Shown piece by piece: positions 2,294 to 61,721 of a DNA stretch of 64,000 nucleotides (its first letter is position 1; the number at the start of each line of letters is the position of its first letter). A program made the translations under genes and the position numbers. The stretch lies in the UHGV virus genome UHGV-0066004. One strand, given 5' to 3'. This stretch comes from a virus. The notes beneath the pieces are model-generated. The model was not told the origin of the DNA. It saw nothing but the letters and a program-made list of their open reading frames with translations, and did not search any database.

Positions 2294-2835
2294 TTAAACT
2301 AATATTTGCAAGTGGTGAAAACGGTGAATTTGGTACACCGACTGGTATGCCGTGGCCTCGACATAAGCAAGATATGCAAGAGTTTAAGAGACTCACTAAA
2401 AACAACTTAGTAGTGATGGGTAACGAGACTTTCAAGACTCTGGGGAGTAAACCTTTACCAGAACGTGCAAATCTCATCTTAACAAATTCTGTACCATACT
2501 TAGGCATAGACTTTGGCAAAGATGAGGTAATGTATGCTAAGGCCAGCAAAGAATCCTTTGGAGCATTTTTGAAGTATCTCGATAACTCTATTGATGAAGA
2601 TGTCTTTGTAATTGGTGGTGCAGGTGTCCTTGTCAATGCTTTACCATATGCTGGTGTAGTTTTCCATACAGTTTTCCATAAAGTTACTGAAGAGGCCACT
2701 GTGCATTTACCTTTTGAAAACTTCTTCGATAAACTGTATGATAACCGTGTATTTACAAAGGTACAGTCAAAACCATCAGAGGATGGTAAAGCAACCTTTG
2801 AAATTTATGTTCCACAAGTAAAAGGACACTTTTGA
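2290..2835 (+). CDS. frd: dihydrofolate reductase
   Basis: 181 aa; DHFR-like N-terminus (IFASGENGEFG, MPWP, VVMGNETF); directly upstream of thymidylate synthase as in T4-type phages. Confidence 0.8.
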   Translation: MIKLIFASGENGEFGTPTGMPWPRHKQDMQEFKRLTKNNLVVMGNETFKTLGSKPLPERANLILTNSVPYLGIDFGKDEVMYAKASKESFGAFLKYLDNSIDEDVFVIGGAGVLVNALPYAGVVFHTVFHKVTEEATVHLPFENFFDKLYDNRVFTKVQSKPSEDGKATFEIYVPQVKGHF

Positions 2836-2836
2836 T

Positions 2837-3736
2837 ATGTCACAAGCAGATACAAGTTACAAAAATATCCTGAACCATGTTTTATCCGTTGGTGAACTGC
2901 GTACTACAAGAACTGGAGATGTTATCTCTGCATTTGCTCCACCACAGTTTCGTTTTGATATGCGTACTGGTTTCCCACTCTTAACATCTAAACAGGTGTT
3001 TACAAGGCAAGTTATTGGGGAAGCTTTATGGTTCCTGAACGGTGAGAATAAGCTTGGTGAACTTCGTTACCGTACTTGGGGTGAAAATGATGGGGAACGC
3101 TGGACTATCTGGTCAGATGATTTTAAACGCTGGTTAAGCTCTAACTATTCTTCTGAACAAGATTGGTTAGAGGATGCAGGTGGGAGAATCTACGGGGTTC
3201 AGTGGAGAAACTTTGAAGGTCATAATGGTTGTGTTGTAGACCAGTTAGAGACCTTAGTAACGAAGATGAAAGGTGATATCACAGACCGTTACATGCTTGT
3301 TAATGCTTGGAATGCAGCAGATATTGCAGCTAACTCAATGGCTTTAGCACCTTGTCATGTTCTGTTTCAGATTTATATCACTAACGAAGGTGAAGTTGAC
3401 TTACAATGGTATCAACGTTCTGTAGACACCTTTTTAGGACTTCCGTTTAACATTGCATCTTATGGTTTTATTCTGGAAGTTCTTTGCAAGATGACTGGAT
3501 ACACTCCACGATACTTGATAGGTGTCTTTGGAGATACTCAGATTTATCATAACCATATGAAGCAGGTCTATGAACTGATGAACAATGAAGAGTTTCATGC
3601 ACCTACTTTTGAGATTGGTGTACAGCTTAACACTTTAAGTGACTTAAAACATCTTACTGCAAGTGACTTTATTGGTGGAATTAACAACTACCAACATGCA
3701 GGGAAGATTGAAGCACCTCTGTCAGTAGGTAAGTAA
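2837..3736 (+). CDS. thyA: thymidylate synthase
   Basis: 299 aa; ThyA motifs ALAPCH (active-site Cys) and LGLPFNIASY. Confidence 0.85.
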   Translation: MSQADTSYKNILNHVLSVGELRTTRTGDVISAFAPPQFRFDMRTGFPLLTSKQVFTRQVIGEALWFLNGENKLGELRYRTWGENDGERWTIWSDDFKRWLSSNYSSEQDWLEDAGGRIYGVQWRNFEGHNGCVVDQLETLVTKMKGDITDRYMLVNAWNAADIAANSMALAPCHVLFQIYITNEGEVDLQWYQRSVDTFLGLPFNIASYGFILEVLCKMTGYTPRYLIGVFGDTQIYHNHMKQVYELMNNEEFHAPTFEIGVQLNTLSDLKHLTASDFIGGINNYQHAGKIEAPLSVGK

Positions 3737-4418: not shown

Positions 4419-6812
4419 TTAAGCAGTTCTTACCCAAGCCATTAACTTGTAGAACTGGTTAGTAACACTAAATGCTGAACCAGAACCTGTACCACCAGTG
4501 TTACCACTAACTGTATGGGTGTGAGCACCAATACCTACAGAGTGGGTGTGAGCACCAGTGTTACTTGTAGTACCAGACCATGTGTGTGTATGGTTACCAG
4601 TCGTGTTAGTGTTAGGGAACTTGTTATCAGTTCTGTCAAGCCAGTCAAGAGTTCTCGTCTTGTTATTGCTAACAGTTGTATAACCGTACTGAGCATCACC
4701 ACCATTAACCAATAGCAGACCTAAGTGGTGAGCGTGGTTACCAGCAGCACTTGTTGTACCACTTACAGAGTGAGTATGACCACCAGTGCTATTAGTGCTC
4801 TTCGTACCATAATCAAAAGATGAAGTGGTAGCAGAGAAACTATGGGTGTGTGATGGTAAGTTACCAACAGCTAACGTCACAGAATCTGAACCACCTGTTG
4901 TAGCAACATCTGAACCGTTTGCTGCTGCAATTCTGATAGTTCTACCAACACCATTATTCAGGTACGTCCAAGTTAACCCAGGAAGTGCTGTATTGGGGTC
5001 AACATTACTGTTAAACCACGTTACAATACCTACTGGATAGATTTTATTCAGGTCTGTAGAGTCACTAATTGCTTCTGCAATCTTCTGGTCAGTTTCAGCT
5101 TTAGTGTATGCACCAATTTCTGAAGGGGTTGGTTTATCTTGGTCTGTATAGATTTTAGACCATGCCTTCTCAAAACCATACCCATCTCGTGCAGTCCTGT
5201 AAAAAACACCACCATTCCTGTAGATAAACTTAAACTGTGCAGATGGTGTTGAGCCACCACCAATAAACATCTGATAAACTAGTTGTGATGCACCCCCAGT
5301 TTTCATTGTAACATTATACAGACCAGTTCTAGCATTCCAAGCAATACCATCCCCATCACCAACCTCTGTACCATTGCCAGTAGAGATAGCATACATGTAC
5401 CTATAGTCTGCGGTAGATTGCGTGTAATATCTAGCATCTAAGTTAGAGAAATCAGAAGGTTGAACTTGACCAGTAATGGCTAAATTCTTATTCGCAACAA
5501 TTGCTGATGGTTCAAGGGCAATTTGAGTACCAGAGTAACTATTGTTTAAGGTTACCACATTAGAGTTTGGGCCACCTACACCTAACCACCACCTCGATAC
5601 GTTCGCGGTATCCACACCACGGATATATAGTGGTTGACCTTGTGTTAAGTTTTTTAATACTAAGCCTTCATTATTTGATACAATAGTCTGCACATTCACG
5701 AAAGTGTTAGACACATTAATCTTAGCAAGATTATTCAAAGTAGCTGCTGGAATGTATCTAGAGTCAATGTTAGTCCAATCAGATGGTTGAATTTGACCAG
5801 TGATTTTTACACTCTTGTTAAATGTAGCACCAGACGAGTTTAAGACAATTGAGGTATTGCCCTTGTAATCGTAAAATGTGATATTGTCATTTGCATCACC
5901 TTTACCGATATACCACAGATTATTGTTTTCAACATCTTTTGCTAGGATGAACAAAGACTCATTAACAGCTTTATTTTTTAGCATGATAGCAGCAGCATTA
6001 GAGCTAACACTAACATAGTTGCTGAAGGTGTTTAAACCACTAAAAGTGTTATTCGCAGTTAACTGTGCAAACCTATGATTAGCAACTGTCTGAGTGAAGT
6101 ATCTAGCATCTAAGTTAGAGAAGTCAGAAGGCTGAACTTGACCCATGACTCTTAGTGTCTTGTTAAATGACGCTGTTGCGTTAAGGATTAACATTGAGCC
6201 AGTGGCACGATTGTACAGATAAACATTAGTGTTGTTTGCATTTCTCTGTCCAACATACCACGTTTGCTGGTTATTAGCATCTCTACCCTGAATATATGAA
6301 GCTCCTGCATTAGTTGCTTTCTTAAGAGTTAACTGCTCACCATCAACGACAATTGCTTGCCTAATGTTGAAGTTATTTGTTACAGCCAACCTTGCATATC
6401 TTGCATCATTCTCTTTATTAGTTCTCATCCCAAGTTCATTAGGACTTGGTTTATTCAGAGTATGATAAACAGTTGCTGACCTTGAAGCATCTGCAATAGT
6501 TAGCCTAAGACCATTTGCGTTAATTTTAAAAGTCTTTAAAACATCCCCAATATTAATCTCAGAAGAGCCTGTTGGGTCAAATACTGCCTTACCACCATAA
6601 AGTAACTTAACAATCCCTAAGTCACCCGTCATAGTGCTACCAGCAATCTGAACAAATCTTTCAAGTTTAAAAGATGCTAAGAAGTCTTGATAGGTCATTC
6701 GACGGTCTTCATCACCCAGCATTTCAGGTCTCTTTTTAACTCTGACATGAAGAAGGTCATCTGAACGGATTGTATCGATTGAGTTTAACTCACTCAACTT
6801 GTAATCTGCCAT
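4419..6812 (-). CDS. tail fiber protein (large)
   Basis: 797 aa; three internal repeats of G-Q-[VI]-Q-P-S-D-[FW]-[ST]-N-[LI]-D-[AS]-R-Y; His-x-His-rich C-terminus; distal to baseplate genes. Confidence 0.8.
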
Positions 6813-6858: not shown

Positions 6859-8046
6859 TTAAGCTGTTCTCTGCCATACATACAGTACGAATGATGGCTG
6901 CTCAATGTTGAAAGCTTGTCCACCACCAACACTGTTAGTGTTTCCGCTATGTGTATGCTCAGAAGAAGAAACTGTCACAGTACCGTTGTGTGTATGTGAA
7001 CCAATACCAACTGTATGGCTATGAGCACCAATACCCACTGTGTGATTGTGGTTACCAGTTGTGTTAGTGGTAACGCTAAAAGAGTGGGTGTGCGAACCAG
7101 CGACTTCGCAGACAGCATCTGCTGAGTACCACGATTGGTCATTCCTTGTAGACCAAACCATTGCAGGTCTTTCCGATAAACCACCACCTGATTCATAGGT
7201 CAATCTGTGGTTATGAGCACCAGCAGAACTTGTTGACCCACTACCAACATGGTTATGGTTACCAGTTGTGTTAGTGGTCTTAGTTCCATAGTCAAAAGAG
7301 TTGGTAGTCTTAGTTCCATAGTCAAAAGCTGAAATTGACATAGTTGCATTATGAGCATGACCACCACCACTAAGAGACACAGAGTGTGAGTGTTGTGGCA
7401 TATTATTAACTGACAAAGTGACAGTTGAAGCACCAAATACAGAGCCTGCTGGTCTTGTATCAGAGTCATAACCAACCAATGCTCTACCTTTTGAAACTAA
7501 CTCCCAAGTTCCTCCACAAATTAAATACGTAGAAGGGTTTGCAGAGTTCATGGAAAGATGGATAGTACCTACTGGATAAGAAGCCTGAACAGCCTTGTAC
7601 AAGTTATTTACTGCTCTTGCTGTAGCATATTTATCTGCATCTTCGTTATAAAGGTTCGATGTTGTCCAGTTCTGGACATTGCGCAACCCTACCTGTGCCT
7701 TAGTTGTATTGTGTGGGTTGCTCTTGTCCTGAATATGCTGTTGAACAAGATTATTAACCTCTTCTGAAGACATAATCTGTAGATTTGCTCTTGCCTGAGC
7801 TACATTAGTAACGTCTGATAAGTTATTTGCAGCAACTAACTGAAGAGCATTAATAACATTATCTAAACCAATTTGTGTTTTAGTAACACCATGAGGGTTA
7901 TTTCTTAGGCTTGAGTGTGGAGCAAGTAATTGCTCAAGAGTACACCTCTTATCCTCAATACCCTGCTTAAGATGGAAGATATCACTAAGGTCAATTGGTA
8001 AGGCTGCTTGAGGCAAGGCACTAATTTGAATTTCACCTACTGCCAT
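6859..8046 (-). CDS. tail fiber protein (second)
   Basis: 395 aa; C-terminal HxH motifs similar to the 797-aa fiber; duplicated SFDYGTKTTN segment. Confidence 0.75.
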   Translation of the reverse strand: MAVGEIQISALPQAALPIDLSDIFHLKQGIEDKRCTLEQLLAPHSSLRNNPHGVTKTQIGLDNVINALQLVAANNLSDVTNVAQARANLQIMSSEEVNNLVQQHIQDKSNPHNTTKAQVGLRNVQNWTTSNLYNEDADKYATARAVNNLYKAVQASYPVGTIHLSMNSANPSTYLICGGTWELVSKGRALVGYDSDTRPAGSVFGASTVTLSVNNMPQHSHSVSLSGGGHAHNATMSISAFDYGTKTTNSFDYGTKTTNTTGNHNHVGSGSTSSAGAHNHRLTYESGGGLSERPAMVWSTRNDQSWYSADAVCEVAGSHTHSFSVTTNTTGNHNHTVGIGAHSHTVGIGSHTHNGTVTVSSSEHTHSGNTNSVGGGQAFNIEQPSFVLYVWQRTA

Positions 8047-50285: not shown

Positions 50286-50469
50286 GATAACCACGTTCAA
50301 AGAGTCAATAAAAATTTTAAAAATATTTTTGGCAAAACTGTAATGAAACGGGTGCGCACGACTACCACAAAACAGAACGCAAATCAAGAATTATTTTTCA
50401 ATCCGCTACAAATTTTTCTCTTGACTTTTGGGGAGAGGAAGAGGGGGAGAGGGGTTGGGCTGGCTGTCT

Positions 50470-50665
50470 ATAAAAACCTACCTGCACAATTCTAAAATGA
50501 TTTTTCTTGCCCGACCTGAGCGGGGTCTGCACGTTTTGAAAATGAAAAAGCTCTTTGGAGATTACCTGCACAGTTTGAAAATGAATTTTCTCTTTGGAGT
50601 TCAAAATTCTCTCTACAGATTTCTCTACAGAACTCTACCTGCACAATTCTAAAATGAAAAAGCCC
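50470..50665. repeat. four direct repeats of CCTGCACA(A/G)TT(C/T)(T/G)AAAATGA in a non-coding gap
   Basis: copies near 50476, 50526, 50562 and 50636; no credible ORF. Confidence 0.6.
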
Positions 50666-50730
50666 TCCTTACCTGAAAAATTTACCAGATAAGAAAGGCT
50701 TAGGCTATTGTGAATATACTACAGAGTTTC

Positions 50731-51516
50731 TTAGTTCTTTGCGTCTAAGAAGGTAACTTCTGGTGAAGAGAAGATTGCCTCGATATCCTCATCAGTTCTT
50801 GCATAGATATAAGCTTCTGCATCACTACCAAATGTTACAGCAATTCTGTGATTGCTCTTTGACAGGTGGGTAACTAGAGCGTTACTTAGAGACATCTTTT
50901 CAACCGGAGGGTTACTTTGATGTATCTTACCTTTTCTTCGTCTGAAGAGGGTAACTGCGTTATCTGTGAACACTGCTACACCTGCAAAGTATTCTGGTTC
51001 ACAGTAGTTCTTCCAACCTGAGCGTAACTTGTGGTACATCTCGCCTTCATAGACATACAGATAAACATCTACACTCTTCATCACCTGATTGATGATAACT
51101 GTGATGGCTTGAGGGTCAAGTCCACCGATACCTGCACCAATCATAGGTAAACCAACTTTCTTCAACTGATTAACTTCACAGTATCTGTTAAGCTGTTTCA
51201 AAGATGACTCTAAAGCACTGTATCGGGCATCTTTACCAGTCTTAAGCTGAGTGTAAAGGTTAGCTATACGACCTTGTTTTAAGCGTGCTACAGAGAAATT
51301 ACCTAGTAAATTCTCACAGGGTTTGTGACCTATACCACCTGCATAGAGATAAACTTCTGTATCGGTCTCATATGCTTTTGGGTAAAGTTTAGAAATCTTG
51401 TCAGCGATACCTGCGCCCATTAGGTTCATGCAGTTACAACCATGACCAATGATGTCAAACTTACCTTTATCAAATGCAGCAAAGATATCACCATTGATGA
51501 TTTTTACAATACCCAT
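50731..51516 (-). CDS. macrodomain protein (TARG1/DarG-like ADP-ribose hydrolase fold) with C-terminal extension
   Basis: 261 aa; GDIF ... GHGCNCMNLMGAGIA and VGLPMIGAGIGG match the TARG1/DarG macrodomain pattern. Confidence 0.7.
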   Translation of the reverse strand: MGIVKIINGDIFAAFDKGKFDIIGHGCNCMNLMGAGIADKISKLYPKAYETDTEVYLYAGGIGHKPCENLLGNFSVARLKQGRIANLYTQLKTGKDARYSALESSLKQLNRYCEVNQLKKVGLPMIGAGIGGLDPQAITVIINQVMKSVDVYLYVYEGEMYHKLRSGWKNYCEPEYFAGVAVFTDNAVTLFRRRKGKIHQSNPPVEKMSLSNALVTHLSKSNHRIAVTFGSDAEAYIYARTDEDIEAIFSSPEVTFLDAKN

Positions 51517-51717
51517 TTAGCATCTCTCCCAAGATTCTTTATCTTCTGAAGGTTTTACACGTTGCCCCTCATGGTCTACCCAGATGCACCCACAACCTTC
51601 ACAGATTACTGGCATTGCATAACCAGCTTTAAAATCATCTTCAGTGATAAGACCTTTTAAGTCACCTGTATCACGTCCGAACATTTCGATAGAACAGTCT
51701 TTACAGAAGTCAGCCAT
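51517..51717 (-). CDS. hypothetical Cys-rich small protein
   Basis: track ORF 51517..51795 trimmed to internal Met (MADFCKDCS) giving ATGA overlap; CxxC ... CEGCGC. Confidence 0.45.
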   Translation of the reverse strand: MADFCKDCSIEMFGRDTGDLKGLITEDDFKAGYAMPVICEGCGCIWVDHEGQRVKPSEDKESWERC

Positions 51718-53544: not shown

Positions 53545-54240
53545 TCAATGTTTAACTAACATGGTTTTGATGTGTGGAAGTATTCTGTTCACCTTCTGCA
53601 CATTCTTCTCTGTGTCTTCTATAAAACATACTATATTAAAGTAAGGCAGAATACAAGACTGAATCATCCTCACTTTCAAACTTTCTGCACTTATAGAGTT
53701 AGTCCCAAAACCACGCATAAAAAGCATGTAGTCATGCTCTGTGTTATGCCTTAAAAACATCTCAGTAGGTATTCTCTGAGATTCACCTCTCGCTGTCAAG
53801 AGTCCAATGGCAGCATGATTAGCAATTGCATCAATAATACTAAAGACATACGTTGGTTTTGCTCTTACAGAGTCAAGAAGATTAGTGTACTGTGAGAATG
53901 ACCCATCAGTCAATTCCGTTGAGCAATCTTCGTGATTAAAATTTGTAAGAACACCATCAATATCTGCTAAGATGAGGTTACCTTTTTCTACAAGGTCTTT
54001 ATTGACTATGACTAAGCTATCACGACTTACACCTATAGTTTGTCCAGTCTCTTTATCTACAACATTCACAATTGGCTCTGATGTGTGGAACTCTTCGAGT
54101 GAACATACAACTTCTCTTGCAGTGTCTTCAAAATCCCTACACTGTTCTGGAGTCCATACACAGGAATCAAGACCTAACTCATGAGGATGTAAGTCGTAAG
54201 CATGACACAGTACTTCATCAGACTTTTTTAATTTTTTCAT
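53545..54240 (-). CDS. putative HAD-family hydrolase/phosphatase
   Basis: 231 aa; LILADIDGVLTNF matches HAD motif I (DxDG). Confidence 0.5.
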   Translation of the reverse strand: MKKLKKSDEVLCHAYDLHPHELGLDSCVWTPEQCRDFEDTAREVVCSLEEFHTSEPIVNVVDKETGQTIGVSRDSLVIVNKDLVEKGNLILADIDGVLTNFNHEDCSTELTDGSFSQYTNLLDSVRAKPTYVFSIIDAIANHAAIGLLTARGESQRIPTEMFLRHNTEHDYMLFMRGFGTNSISAESLKVRMIQSCILPYFNIVCFIEDTEKNVQKVNRILPHIKTMLVKH

Positions 54241-58997: not shown

Positions 58998-60779
58998 TTA
59001 AAGCTGCTTGTCAATATTATTTCGAATATCACCAAGAGTTGTGTAACCGAACTGCTCAGAGTCACTAAAGACTAAACGTAAAGCACAGGCTGGGTGGTCA
59101 AGTACATCTGCAAAACTCTGGAATCCATATCCATCTACAGCTTTCAGCTTATCACCGTCCCACATAGGTGCTACACCACCAAAGGCAGACTTCTTAACAC
59201 CACTATCTGTTTTAGGGTCTTTTGCAAGCATAATCTCTTTACCACCAATGCTTGCAAGAGTTGCTTTGACAGCAAATGCAAAGGTGTCACGAGTCATGTA
59301 CTGGTAAGTGTAGGAGCCTACACCAAACACTACGTTAGAGCTTGCAAAACCCATTCCATACAGACGCTTCAGGATTTCGTTTGCACGTTCCAGCGTGATA
59401 GAATCACCATAGATAAGGCCGATATGCTCATCCAGTACCTTAAACCCTTTAGAGTTAATAGTTCCCCCAAAGATGTTGTACAGTGTCTTAATAGCTCCAT
59501 CAATCTCAGCTACAGGACGTGTTACAACGTTTGCAGAACCAACCATATAAGCATCCTTTAACATCACCGTATCAGCAGCTTCAAAGTCTTCTCTGTCAAC
59601 AACCATTTCGTAGCCTTCTGACAGTAGCCATCCAGCAATACCATAGCTGATGTTTTCAAGCTTCATGTTCAGAATAGCATTCAACATTGTGTCACTGGCT
59701 TCCAGCTTGCTTAGGTGCTTATAATAAGCCTTCTTAGCACACTCTAAGTGGATTGCTTTATAACCTGTGACAATATGTACAGGGTCTCCAGAGTCAGGAC
59801 GAATTACCAGTTTGCCATCACGTTCCATAATTTCTTTACGGAGTGCTGGTAAGATTTCTGACACAGTTCTCCAGAAGTTATAAGTATCTGAAACAATACT
59901 TGCAATACCAGTTGGGTAAGTTTCTGTTAAGAAACGACGGAAGGTTTGTAACTCACCTTTAAAGCGTCTTTCTTCTTCAATCAATTCATTACCACCTTCC
60001 CAAGCAATGTTTGCACACATTACAGAGTGCTCAGTGGCTGGTACAGAACTACCAATATCAGAGATTGGGTAAGACTGACCATAGATTCGTTTAGCCGTGT
60101 ATACAGCAGGGAAGCTATCAGTTCCTTTAAAGCTGGTTAAGTGACCTACAGCGTTAAATGCGTCATCAGTAAAGCCGGACATACCACGCATAGCAAAGTC
60201 ATGGCACTGATAAGGCAAATGTAAGTCGTTGTCACAAGTAAGGTCAGACCACTTCTTACAGATACGTTTGTAGTGCAATGCAATAGTCGCAATGGTACAA
60301 GCCTTCCAAATTTCAGCAGAGAAAGCATCTTCCAGATAACCTGCTACCCAATGGAAACCTGAAACAGTGTTCTGGAAGACAATCATTGGGACACGCATAG
60401 GAACAACTGTACCTTCTTCTACAGCGTATACTTCAACTGGTAGATAACCTAAGTCGTGAAGTGATTCCCAATGCTCTCGACCGATAGCATCTTTACCCAG
60501 AACACCATTCATGACTTCTAAGATTTCGTCAACTGCTTCTTTTTTATCACGTTCAAAGAAAGTGGCGTTCCAGTGGTCTATCAGGTAATCTTTAACGAAA
60601 CGTTGAATACCAAAAGCTACTACACCATCAATTGCTAAGGGGCTGTTAAACCATTTGTCACTACGTGGTGTCAGGTTGAACATCAAGTATTCTGTTGCAC
60701 TAGGGTACTGGTAAACATGACCAGATTTGTAAGCATCTGCGTTTAAACCTGCTGGTACTGCGTAAAGCGATTTAGTCAT
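58998..60779 (-). CDS. nadV: nicotinamide phosphoribosyltransferase-like enzyme (NadV/Nampt family)
   Basis: 593 aa; NadV-like N-terminus; adjacent to Prs-like gene. Confidence 0.75.
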   Translation of the reverse strand: MTKSLYAVPAGLNADAYKSGHVYQYPSATEYLMFNLTPRSDKWFNSPLAIDGVVAFGIQRFVKDYLIDHWNATFFERDKKEAVDEILEVMNGVLGKDAIGREHWESLHDLGYLPVEVYAVEEGTVVPMRVPMIVFQNTVSGFHWVAGYLEDAFSAEIWKACTIATIALHYKRICKKWSDLTCDNDLHLPYQCHDFAMRGMSGFTDDAFNAVGHLTSFKGTDSFPAVYTAKRIYGQSYPISDIGSSVPATEHSVMCANIAWEGGNELIEEERRFKGELQTFRRFLTETYPTGIASIVSDTYNFWRTVSEILPALRKEIMERDGKLVIRPDSGDPVHIVTGYKAIHLECAKKAYYKHLSKLEASDTMLNAILNMKLENISYGIAGWLLSEGYEMVVDREDFEAADTVMLKDAYMVGSANVVTRPVAEIDGAIKTLYNIFGGTINSKGFKVLDEHIGLIYGDSITLERANEILKRLYGMGFASSNVVFGVGSYTYQYMTRDTFAFAVKATLASIGGKEIMLAKDPKTDSGVKKSAFGGVAPMWDGDKLKAVDGYGFQSFADVLDHPACALRLVFSDSEQFGYTTLGDIRNNIDKQL

Positions 60780-60824: not shown

Positions 60825-61721
60825 TCAATCAATGGTTGCTACAGTAACTTGGGCGTAATGTGTTAAGCCACGGTCTTTAGCTTCACCTAAAGTGTTTGTA
60901 GTGTAGATATGGTCAATACCGTTGTCAAGTAAGTTTTCAACACCTTTAGAGAAAATACCATGAGTTACATAGAGTTCCACACGTTTTGCACCTGCTTCAC
61001 GTAGGTGTTTAGCTGCCTCTACGAAGGTTCGACCACCATCACAGATATCATCAAGAATCATGACAGTTTTATCGGTCAAATCAACATCGTCAAGGATTCG
61101 CATACCAGTGATTTCTCCAGTCTTAAGATTGCGCACCTTAGACATTGTGATATACGGTTTATCCACCTCTTTAGCGGTATCTTCAGTCTTCTTAGCTGCA
61201 CCTGCATCTGGGGCTACCAAGAAATCAATGCGTGGGTCACTTGCAAAGTGTACTGCCACATCTTTTTGCTTCATGCTTTGAAAGCACTTAAATAAGTTTT
61301 CTGCAACATTACTGTGAGGGTCAAGAGCACATACTGCATCAAAACCCATTGCATTAACTAGGTTGGCAAAGACTTTCAGTGCTGCTGCATCACCTTTGAA
61401 CATGTGGCGGTCATATCGAGCATTTGGTAAGAACCCGAAAACAACGGTTTTCATCGCTGATTTCTGGGGAACAAGACTGTCAACGGCATCCTTAGCCAAA
61501 GCTAATGCAAACAGTGTATCTTTGTCATATCCCTGCACAGTAAGTATAACATTGTCAATCTTACCAGCATTACGCTCAGTAAACTTAACAAAATCTTCAG
61601 AGAAGTTTCCACCAATTTCTCCAGATGGGAATTGAATGATATTAAATTTTTCTGTGTGGAAGAATTTCTCTTGTGCGGTGACGACGGCTTCAATAACAGT
61701 TTTCATAGTTTTCTCTCTCAA
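60825..61721 (-). CDS. prs: ribose-phosphate pyrophosphokinase-like enzyme (Prs family)
   Basis: 298 aa; PRPP-binding motif VMILDDICDGGRTF. Confidence 0.75.
   Translation of the reverse strand: MREKTMKTVIEAVVTAQEKFFHTEKFNIIQFPSGEIGGNFSEDFVKFTERNAGKIDNVILTVQGYDKDTLFALALAKDAVDSLVPQKSAMKTVVFGFLPNARYDRHMFKGDAAALKVFANLVNAMGFDAVCALDPHSNVAENLFKCFQSMKQKDVAVHFASDPRIDFLVAPDAGAAKKTEDTAKEVDKPYITMSKVRNLKTGEITGMRILDDVDLTDKTVMILDDICDGGRTFVEAAKHLREAGAKRVELYVTHGIFSKGVENLLDNGIDHIYTTNTLGEAKDRGLTHYAQVTVATID

Follow-up and report, generated by a model that had tools for sequence, protein, structure and literature searches.

What does a phage-encoded macrodomain protein do during the infection of Escherichia coli? 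This question is raised by a gene on the minus strand of the virus genome UHGV-0066004, of which a stretch of 64,000 nucleotides (nt), hereafter the window, was analysed. A preliminary description, made from the sequence, had called the product a TARG1/DarG-like macrodomain protein and a possible factor against ADP-ribosylation. On balance, we favour the reading that it is an early, Gln-type, ALC1-like ADP-ribosylhydrolase that would remove DarT2-type thymidine ADP-ribose (ADPr) from single-stranded phage DNA, with a C-terminal module for specificity or interaction. The gene and the parts of its product are as follows.

50731–51516, minus strand: complete open reading frame (ORF) from ATG to stop, two-domain macrodomain protein of 261 amino acids (aa) plus stop (ORF list)
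51049–51516, minus strand: N-terminal macrodomain, residues 1–156, ALC1/TARG1/DarG-like, Gln-type (Pfam, PADLOC, NCBIfam, PDB sequence, fold and BLASTP)
51403–51444, minus strand: HGCNCMNLMGAGIA, residues 25–38, with N28 and the first phosphate-binding loop MGAGIA (family alignment and DarG2 alignment)
51247–51261, minus strand: NLYTQ, residues 86–90, with Q90 at the position of the catalytic Lys of TARG1/DarG (HMMER, MAFFT and BLASTP alignments)
51115–51147, minus strand: PMIGAGIGGLD, residues 124–134, second phosphate-binding loop (family and TARG1 alignments)
50734–51048, minus strand: C-terminal domain, residues 157–261, a helix, six to seven beta strands and a terminal helix (predicted structure)

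The N-terminal domain is a macrodomain, far beyond chance. It matched Pfam Macro (PF01661) over residues 25–138 with E 3.9e-7 and 30.5 bits, the gathering score being 22 bits. The DarG models of PADLOC (9.8e-13) and NCBIfam (antitoxin_DarG, 2.4e-12, at 46.8 bits against a cut-off of 250 bits) matched the macro part only. TARG1 was the best match in a phmmer search of the PDB (1.4e-5), followed by coronavirus Mac1, the DarG proteins of T. aquaticus and M. tuberculosis (DarG, 1e-3) and Poa1p, and a profile built from 18 family members gave 4e-11 for TARG1, 3.6e-9 for M. tuberculosis DarG and 1.6e-7 for T. aquaticus DarG. Structure prediction, which had been proposed as a check, pointed to the same relatives. 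The AlphaFold2 model from the family alignment (predicted local distance difference test (pLDDT) score 85, predicted template modelling score 0.85) found TARG1 (4j5q) and T. aquaticus DarG (5m3e) as its top Foldseek matches in the PDB, with E about 2e-8 and a target-normalised template modelling (TM) score of about 0.8; 5m3i was also among the top matches, and the probability was 1.0 to many macrodomains. The class named in the preliminary description therefore holds in both sequence and fold. The domain belongs to the ALC1/TARG1-like class, with TARG1, DarG, SCO6735 and Poa1p as nearest neighbours and not the MacroD or PARG types. A search of the whole window returned this gene as the only Tk.4-like or DarG-like sequence and the only macrodomain.

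The motifs that had been quoted from the N-terminal ~155 aa, namely, INGDIF (with D10), IIGHGCNCMNLMGAGIA (residues 23–38) and KVGLPMIGAGIGGLD (residues 120–134), are present in the translation, and their coordinates were re-verified. Among 18 homologues, D10 is nearly invariant, and MGAGIA (33–38) and GAGIGG (127–132) are invariant; in the family alignment the same applies to H25, G26, N28, C29, N31 and M33–G36 around the first loop and to P124, G127–I130 and G132–D134 around the second. The ADPr-binding elements, comprising H25/N28, MGAGIA, NLYTQ and PxIGAGIGGLD, are unchanged in all 18 members, down to 33% identity. Judged from these alignments, the ADP-ribose pocket, with its N-terminal Asp and two Gly-rich phosphate loops, appears intact. 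N28 aligns with N22 of T. aquaticus DarG, and the HGCNCMNLMGAGIA segment aligns with NTVNCVGVMGAGVA of DarG2.

The catalytic residues were compared in a MAFFT alignment of the macro protein, its family members, Tk.4, TARG1, BT1257, DarG2 (the DarT-adjacent protein of a K. pneumoniae plasmid) and PhiKZ-type AdfM (from phage OMKO1). The T-K of DarG2 (NFPTK), PhiKZ AdfM (FPTK) and TARG1 (ITK84) aligns with T-Q in the macro protein (NLYTQ), and T-Q is common to T4 Tk.4, all two-domain relatives and BT1257. This correspondence of Lys to Gln was repeated in independent HMMER and BLASTP alignments. G131 stands at the position of TARG1 D125. Human TARG1 (OARD1/C6orf130) is the best solved match in sequence (4e-11) and fold and has the same MGAGIA loop, but its dyad Lys84/Asp125 is replaced by Q90/G131 (HMMER, MAFFT), and the covalent lysyl-intermediate mechanism therefore cannot apply here. 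K80 of DarG is likewise absent. The proposed check of catalytic residues thus gave a divided answer, in which N28 is conserved and the TARG1 and DarG residues are not. The preliminary description had held that missing catalytic residues would refute its reading; in terms of TARG1 and DarG they are formally missing, yet this misfires as a refutation. SCO6735, which has Gln85 at the TARG1/DarG Lys position, is an efficient hydrolase of the thymidine-ADP-ribose that DarT forms on DNA and relieves the toxicity of DarT, and its Q85A/E mutants are inactive; a water-mediated mechanism in which the Gln positions the distal ribose has been proposed (PMC9411070). Since Gln is the essential residue of SCO6735, the absence of Lys does not refute hydrolase activity.

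Among relatives with a functional test, the nearest to the macro protein is Tk.4 of phage T4. Residues 3–160 of the macro protein are 34% identical to T4 tk.4 in tblastn, and BLASTP gave E 5e-25 with 34% identity over 163 columns. A preprint of November 2025 reported tk.4 as the single T4 gene that is conditionally required on a DarTG2 host, confirmed this with a clean knockout and named the gene adfM (10.1101/2025.11.20.689424). AdfM of the PhiKZ gp104 type, with N23 and K78 in its active site, removes DarT2-made ADP-ribose from DNA in vitro and is needed on DarTG2 strains, as reported in Cell Reports in 2026 (PMC13309987). These two reports strengthen the suggestion of counter-defence made in the preliminary description. 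Tk.4 and the macro protein are both phage-encoded macrodomains that stand alone in an early or non-essential region, and they have the same HGCNC and NLYTQ, a shared PxIGxGIxGG and Gln at the Lys position. They differ in architecture and setting. Tk.4 is a single domain of 159 aa, whereas the macro protein of 261 aa has an extra structured C-terminal domain of 105 aa; the neighbourhood is vs/tk in T4 and rII-lysis-Pnk here, and the DarTG2 phenotype has been shown only for T4. The chimallivirus AdfM (PhiKZ gp104) is also a DarG-like phage macrodomain with the first-motif Asn conserved and the same proposed role. However, it is only 22% identical (E 2e-4), retains the Lys (FPTK, K78) where Gln stands here, is imported into the phage nucleus and is without a comparable C-terminal domain.

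The cellular relatives can be set apart in the same manner. DarG2 has in common with the macro protein the macrodomain fold, the ADPr-binding loops, matches to the DarG hidden Markov models (HMMs) and a Foldseek TM score of about 0.8. The DarT-adjacent macrodomain of K. pneumoniae DarG2 is 28% identical (BLASTP E 5e-12) and matches FelixO1-type proteins directly in tblastn. The macro protein differs from DarG2 in the change of Lys to Gln, an unrelated C-terminal domain, an NCBIfam score below the cut-off and the lack of a DarT partner gene. SCO6735 and BT1257 have Gln at the position of TARG1 K84 and DarG K80 and are orphans not linked to a toxin; they are cellular, single-domain proteins of weak similarity (E 0.65 to the SCO6735 structure 5e3b and 0.035–0.04 to BT1257) with a longer mobile loop. 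The macro protein lacks the features that define TARG1 and DarG2 and the Lys of PhiKZ-type AdfM; it agrees with Tk.4-type AdfM in sequence and motifs, not in architecture, and shares its diagnostic Gln with SCO6735 and BT1257.

Under the reading that we favour, the N-terminal macrodomain would bind ADP-ribose and hydrolyse it from a nucleic-acid base. The likeliest substrate would be the thymidine-linked ADP-ribose that DarT2-type toxins put on single-stranded phage DNA, and its removal would allow replication to proceed in hosts with a DarTG2-like defence. The macro protein would then be for Felixounavirus what Tk.4/AdfM is for T4. Catalysis would follow an SCO6735-like, Gln-dependent and water-mediated route, not that of the TARG1/DarG Lys, in which N28 and Q90 would position the distal ribose. 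The beta-rich C-terminal domain of ~105 aa would be a lineage-specific addition that mediates protein or substrate interaction and sets specificity; a role of this type is the most likely one because the domain diverges rapidly.

Several points weigh against this reading. The removal of ADP-ribose by T4 AdfM was inferred by the authors and not shown (10.1101/2025.11.20.689424), and the source is a preprint. Identity is only 34% to Tk.4 and only 22% to the biochemically proven PhiKZ AdfM. The catalytic Lys of DarG and TARG1 is absent, and the analogy to SCO6735 rests on alignment through intermediates, no residue-level alignment around the Gln having been obtained and direct similarity being weak in phmmer against the PDB. 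In the MAFFT alignment, the macro protein shows no insertion like the 5–6 residues (relative to TARG1/DarG) that lengthen the mobile loop in SCO6735 and BT1257, but K92 and K95 come after Q90. A literature search found no experimental link of Felixounaviruses to DarTG. Of 5,426 complete E. coli genomes, 11 had relatives of DarT2-DarG2 at the DNA level, all of them chromosomal and several in avian pathogenic strains; this count is a lower bound, as the query was one K. pneumoniae plasmid locus and divergent subtypes are missed. Because DarTG2 relatives look rare and the macro gene is genus-wide, the usual target of selection may be a different ADP-ribosyltransferase. Uracil-ADPr RNA and proteins are further substrates of TARG1-class enzymes.

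This last point leads to the strongest rival, which we regard as possible although much less probable, namely, that the protein is a de-ADP-ribosylase for another macromolecule: RNA carrying uracil-linked ADPr, or modified by another RNA-targeting host ADP-ribosyltransferase, or proteins of phage or host. TARG1-like enzymes including the Gln-type SCO6735 reverse uracil-linked ADPr on RNA (PMC13036486), and SCO6735 also hydrolyses protein ADPr (PMC9411070). RNA-targeting anti-phage ADP-ribosyltransferases such as CmdTAC exist, and the apparent rarity of DarTG2 loci in E. coli contrasts with a gene conserved in at least 257 phage records. However, Tk.4, the closest relative with a functional test, gave a specific DarTG2 phenotype. 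SCO6735 is inactive on 2'-OH RNA ADPr and reportedly also on 5'-phosphate-linked ADPr. CmdTAC strongly restricts T4 in spite of its Tk.4, and therefore a Tk.4-type macrodomain evidently does not neutralise CmdTAC.

The distribution of the gene adds an evolutionary pattern to these comparisons. Homologues with both domains were found in at least 257 phage records and in metagenomic contigs. In Felixounavirus the gene takes the form of two discrete alleles, with 41% aa identity and no intermediates. About 200 genomes have the major allele, to which the gene in the window belongs, at 90% identity or more, and 13 genomes, including BPS17L1, Si3, finno and ECML-1, have the minor allele at 95% identity or more to its reference protein. 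In a contig with the minor allele, the flanks are ~95% identical DNA and the upstream 66-aa protein is 100% identical, and DNA similarity is lost across 51374–50731 of the window (6143–6780 of the contig), which is all but about the first 140 nt of the gene. The swap resembles the replacement of a cassette, with a single breakpoint some 140 nt from the start of the gene, a pattern that would fit a locus in host–phage conflict.

The C-terminal domain is the part in which the alleles and lineages differ most. Mean pairwise identity is 30% in this domain and 58% in the macrodomain, and the minor allele is 19% identical in the former and 53% in the latter. The domain is nonetheless homologous across the family, as hhalign gave a probability of 96–97% between subgroups sharing 18–25% identity. 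By these comparisons, its rate of evolution is about twice that of the macrodomain, and it is lineage-specific. The discrete alleles and the fast C-terminal domain together resemble the signature of an arms race, which would support an anti-defence hydrolase. In the phage phiEa104 of Erwinia, gp016 (2498–3280) has the same two-domain layout in 260 aa with a macrodomain that is 44% identical, and no relationship of its C-terminal ~105 aa to the Felixounavirus domain could be detected (hhalign probability 0.07%), which could reflect extreme divergence or domain replacement.

The preliminary description had left the C-terminal ~100 aa without assignment, and the searches agreed with it. The pLDDT of the domain is 72–89 in the model of the whole protein and 74 in a model of the domain by itself. 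In 13 family members, Pfam gave only a faint PH-domain match (E 0.19), and PADLOC and NCBIfam gave nothing for this domain. A word-indexed homologue search with the C-terminal profile returned one fragment only, and when 1.84 billion representative proteins were searched exhaustively with an HMM, only the same two-domain family came up, together with long repeat proteins whose multiple short matches were judged spurious. The profile search of the PDB reached ribosomal S17 at E 0.45, which is not significant, and Foldseek against BFVD found only the protein's own family. One candidate for a stand-alone copy proved to be a truncated ORF of the minor allele and not a free domain. Descent from a DarG-like toxin-binding domain was rejected, as hhalign gave a probability of 0.5% to the DarT-binding C-terminal domain of DarG2. 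A role in DNA binding is not favoured by charge, as the isoelectric point ranges from 4.6 to 8.8 across the family. A bolder and rather unlikely proposal is that the domain is a specificity module of new fold whose binding partner is either an ADP-ribosyltransferase toxin of the host, such as DarT2, or the modified nucleic acid, with the two alleles matched to different variants of the host toxin. Such a module could be analogous in function to the toxin-binding domain of DarG while evolutionarily unrelated to it. If so, the product would counter the defence in two ways, 'erase and bind', and would be under diversifying selection.

The surroundings of the gene place it in a known phage genus. 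A stretch of 2.5 kb around it is 99.7% identical in nucleotides to Felixounavirus LF82P2 and 99.5% to Escherichia phage ekra, and by this measure the window comes from an E. coli Felixounavirus. The orthologue in ekra is ekra_14, annotated as 'putative phosphatase'. Further features of the locus are as follows.

51524–51530, minus strand: Shine-Dalgarno-like GGGAGAG, 7 nt 5' of the ATG, inside the end of the upstream ORF (direct sequence reading)
50660–50701, minus strand: terminator-like hairpin followed by a T-run, 30 nt past the stop codon (consensus scan, pattern match only)
58998–60779, minus strand: NadV-type nicotinamide phosphoribosyltransferase, NAPRTase and NAMPT_N (Pfam)
60825–61721, minus strand: Prs-like phosphoribosyl-pyrophosphate synthetase homologue (Pfam)

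The gene lies in a block on the minus strand with, in the order of transcription, rIIA, rIIB, lysin, polynucleotide kinase (Pnk), spanins, small hypothetical ORFs and the macro gene. The neighbours are thus small phage ORFs, spanins, Pnk and rIIA/B, with no darT toxin gene adjacent, and Pfam had no match to the six flanking ORFs that were submitted. The synteny from rIIA, rIIB, lysin and Pnk to the macro gene is kept in metagenomic contigs at only 33–41% protein identity. The macro gene is an early gene, and its early-region site by rIIA/rIIB is conserved in distant relatives.

Several observations were made on the immediate neighbours. The TAA of the upstream ORF abuts the ATG of the macro gene (TAAATG). 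This ORF (51517–51717, minus strand) encodes a Cys-rich protein of 66 aa with a zinc-ribbon-like pattern, CxxC ... CxxCxC, without a Pfam match. In a relative at 33% identity, a different 63-aa ORF with CxxC...CxxC abuts the macro gene (contig 7810–8001), and in another relative this place is taken by an unrelated ORF of 103 aa. Small partners of the zinc-ribbon type thus recur without being universal, and a functional tie to the Cys-rich ORF was rejected because the abutting gene varies among relatives. Just downstream of the macro gene, an intergenic region of ~500 nt holds four direct copies of CCTGCACARTTYKAAAATGA with 39–73 nt spacing (50467–50672, plus strand), where chance would give 0.01; no further copy is present in the window, and a promoter and a terminator are annotated in this region in related records. 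The array may represent tandem early promoters or a regulatory array. The ORF named 'polynucleotide kinase' in ekra (231 aa, 53545–54240, minus strand) had no Pfam match at E 0.01 or better, and its counterparts in distant relatives gave weak or faint HAD_PNKP matches.

These neighbours and the database labels bear on a second rival, which seems improbable to us: the processing of a small ADP-ribose derivative such as ADP-ribose-1''-phosphate, O-acetyl-ADP-ribose (OAADPr) or the Thoeris signals gcADPR or His-ADPR, perhaps together with Pnk or with the salvage of nicotinamide adenine dinucleotide (NAD+) by NadV/Prs. The protein matches phrog_335 (5.5e-113), which is labelled phosphatase, and many GenBank records name a phosphatase or an OAADPr deacetylase; 'O-acetyl-ADP-ribose deacetylase' and 'Poa1p-like macro domain protein' are among the labels of orthologues. 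HGCNC resembles HSCNC of yeast Poa1p, and the match to Poa1p extends over the N-terminal 60 residues. The Pnk-like gene lies 2 kb upstream and is syntenic in distant relatives. However, the names phosphatase, deacetylase and Poa1p-like are transferred annotations and not tests, and the Poa1p match is limited to residues 1–60 (E 6.9e-5, family profile) and is weaker than those to TARG1 and DarG. ADP-ribose-1''-phosphate arises from 2'-phosphotransfer of the Tpt1 type and is not generated by Pnk repair of the T4 type. The anti-Thoeris proteins described so far act as sponges and have other folds. NadV, at 7.5 kb from the macro gene, forms with the Prs-like homologue a pair that resembles the phage NAD+-reconstitution gene sets of the literature. 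An earlier suggestion that the phage may target ADP-ribose and NAD+ at two levels was correct about this proximity, but the link consists of proximity only, because rIIA, rIIB, the lysis genes and Pnk intervene and no connection exists at the level of an operon.

The remaining rival, a non-catalytic reader or sponge of ADP-ribose or a binding-only inhibitor of a host ADP-ribosyltransferase acting through the C-terminal domain, would suit the missing canonical Lys and Asp, the continued inhibition of DarT through interaction by catalytically dead SCO6735, DarG and TARG1 (PMC9411070) and the fast evolution expected of a protein–protein interface, yet it is very unlikely, as N28 and Q90, on whose counterparts catalysis depends in DarG and SCO6735, respectively, do not vary even in homologues with only 33% identity, which is unexpected in a pure binder and argues, on sequence, for an enzyme, and as the C-terminal domain has no similarity to the toxin-binding domain of DarG.

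We therefore return to the anti-DarT2 hydrolase and its meaning for this group of phages. The gene product joins a phage macrodomain of the Tk.4 type to an orphan domain, and a role in counter-defence is plausible and unsurprising given the literature of 2025–2026 on related phages. If confirmed, the AdfM anti-DarT factors would extend from T-even and jumbo nucleus-forming phages to Felixounavirus/Ounavirinae, phages that are widely used in biocontrol and therapy cocktails against Salmonella and E. coli. This would also explain a gene long mislabelled as 'phosphatase' and would provide a second viral case, after T4 Tk.4, of a Gln-type chemistry of DNA de-ADP-ribosylation for which SCO6735 is so far the sole characterised enzyme. 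With its fused, rapidly diverging C-terminal domain and its two alleles, the gene would offer a handle on how such enzymes acquire specificity, and C-terminal divergence and allele type could predict host range on DarTG-bearing clinical strains.

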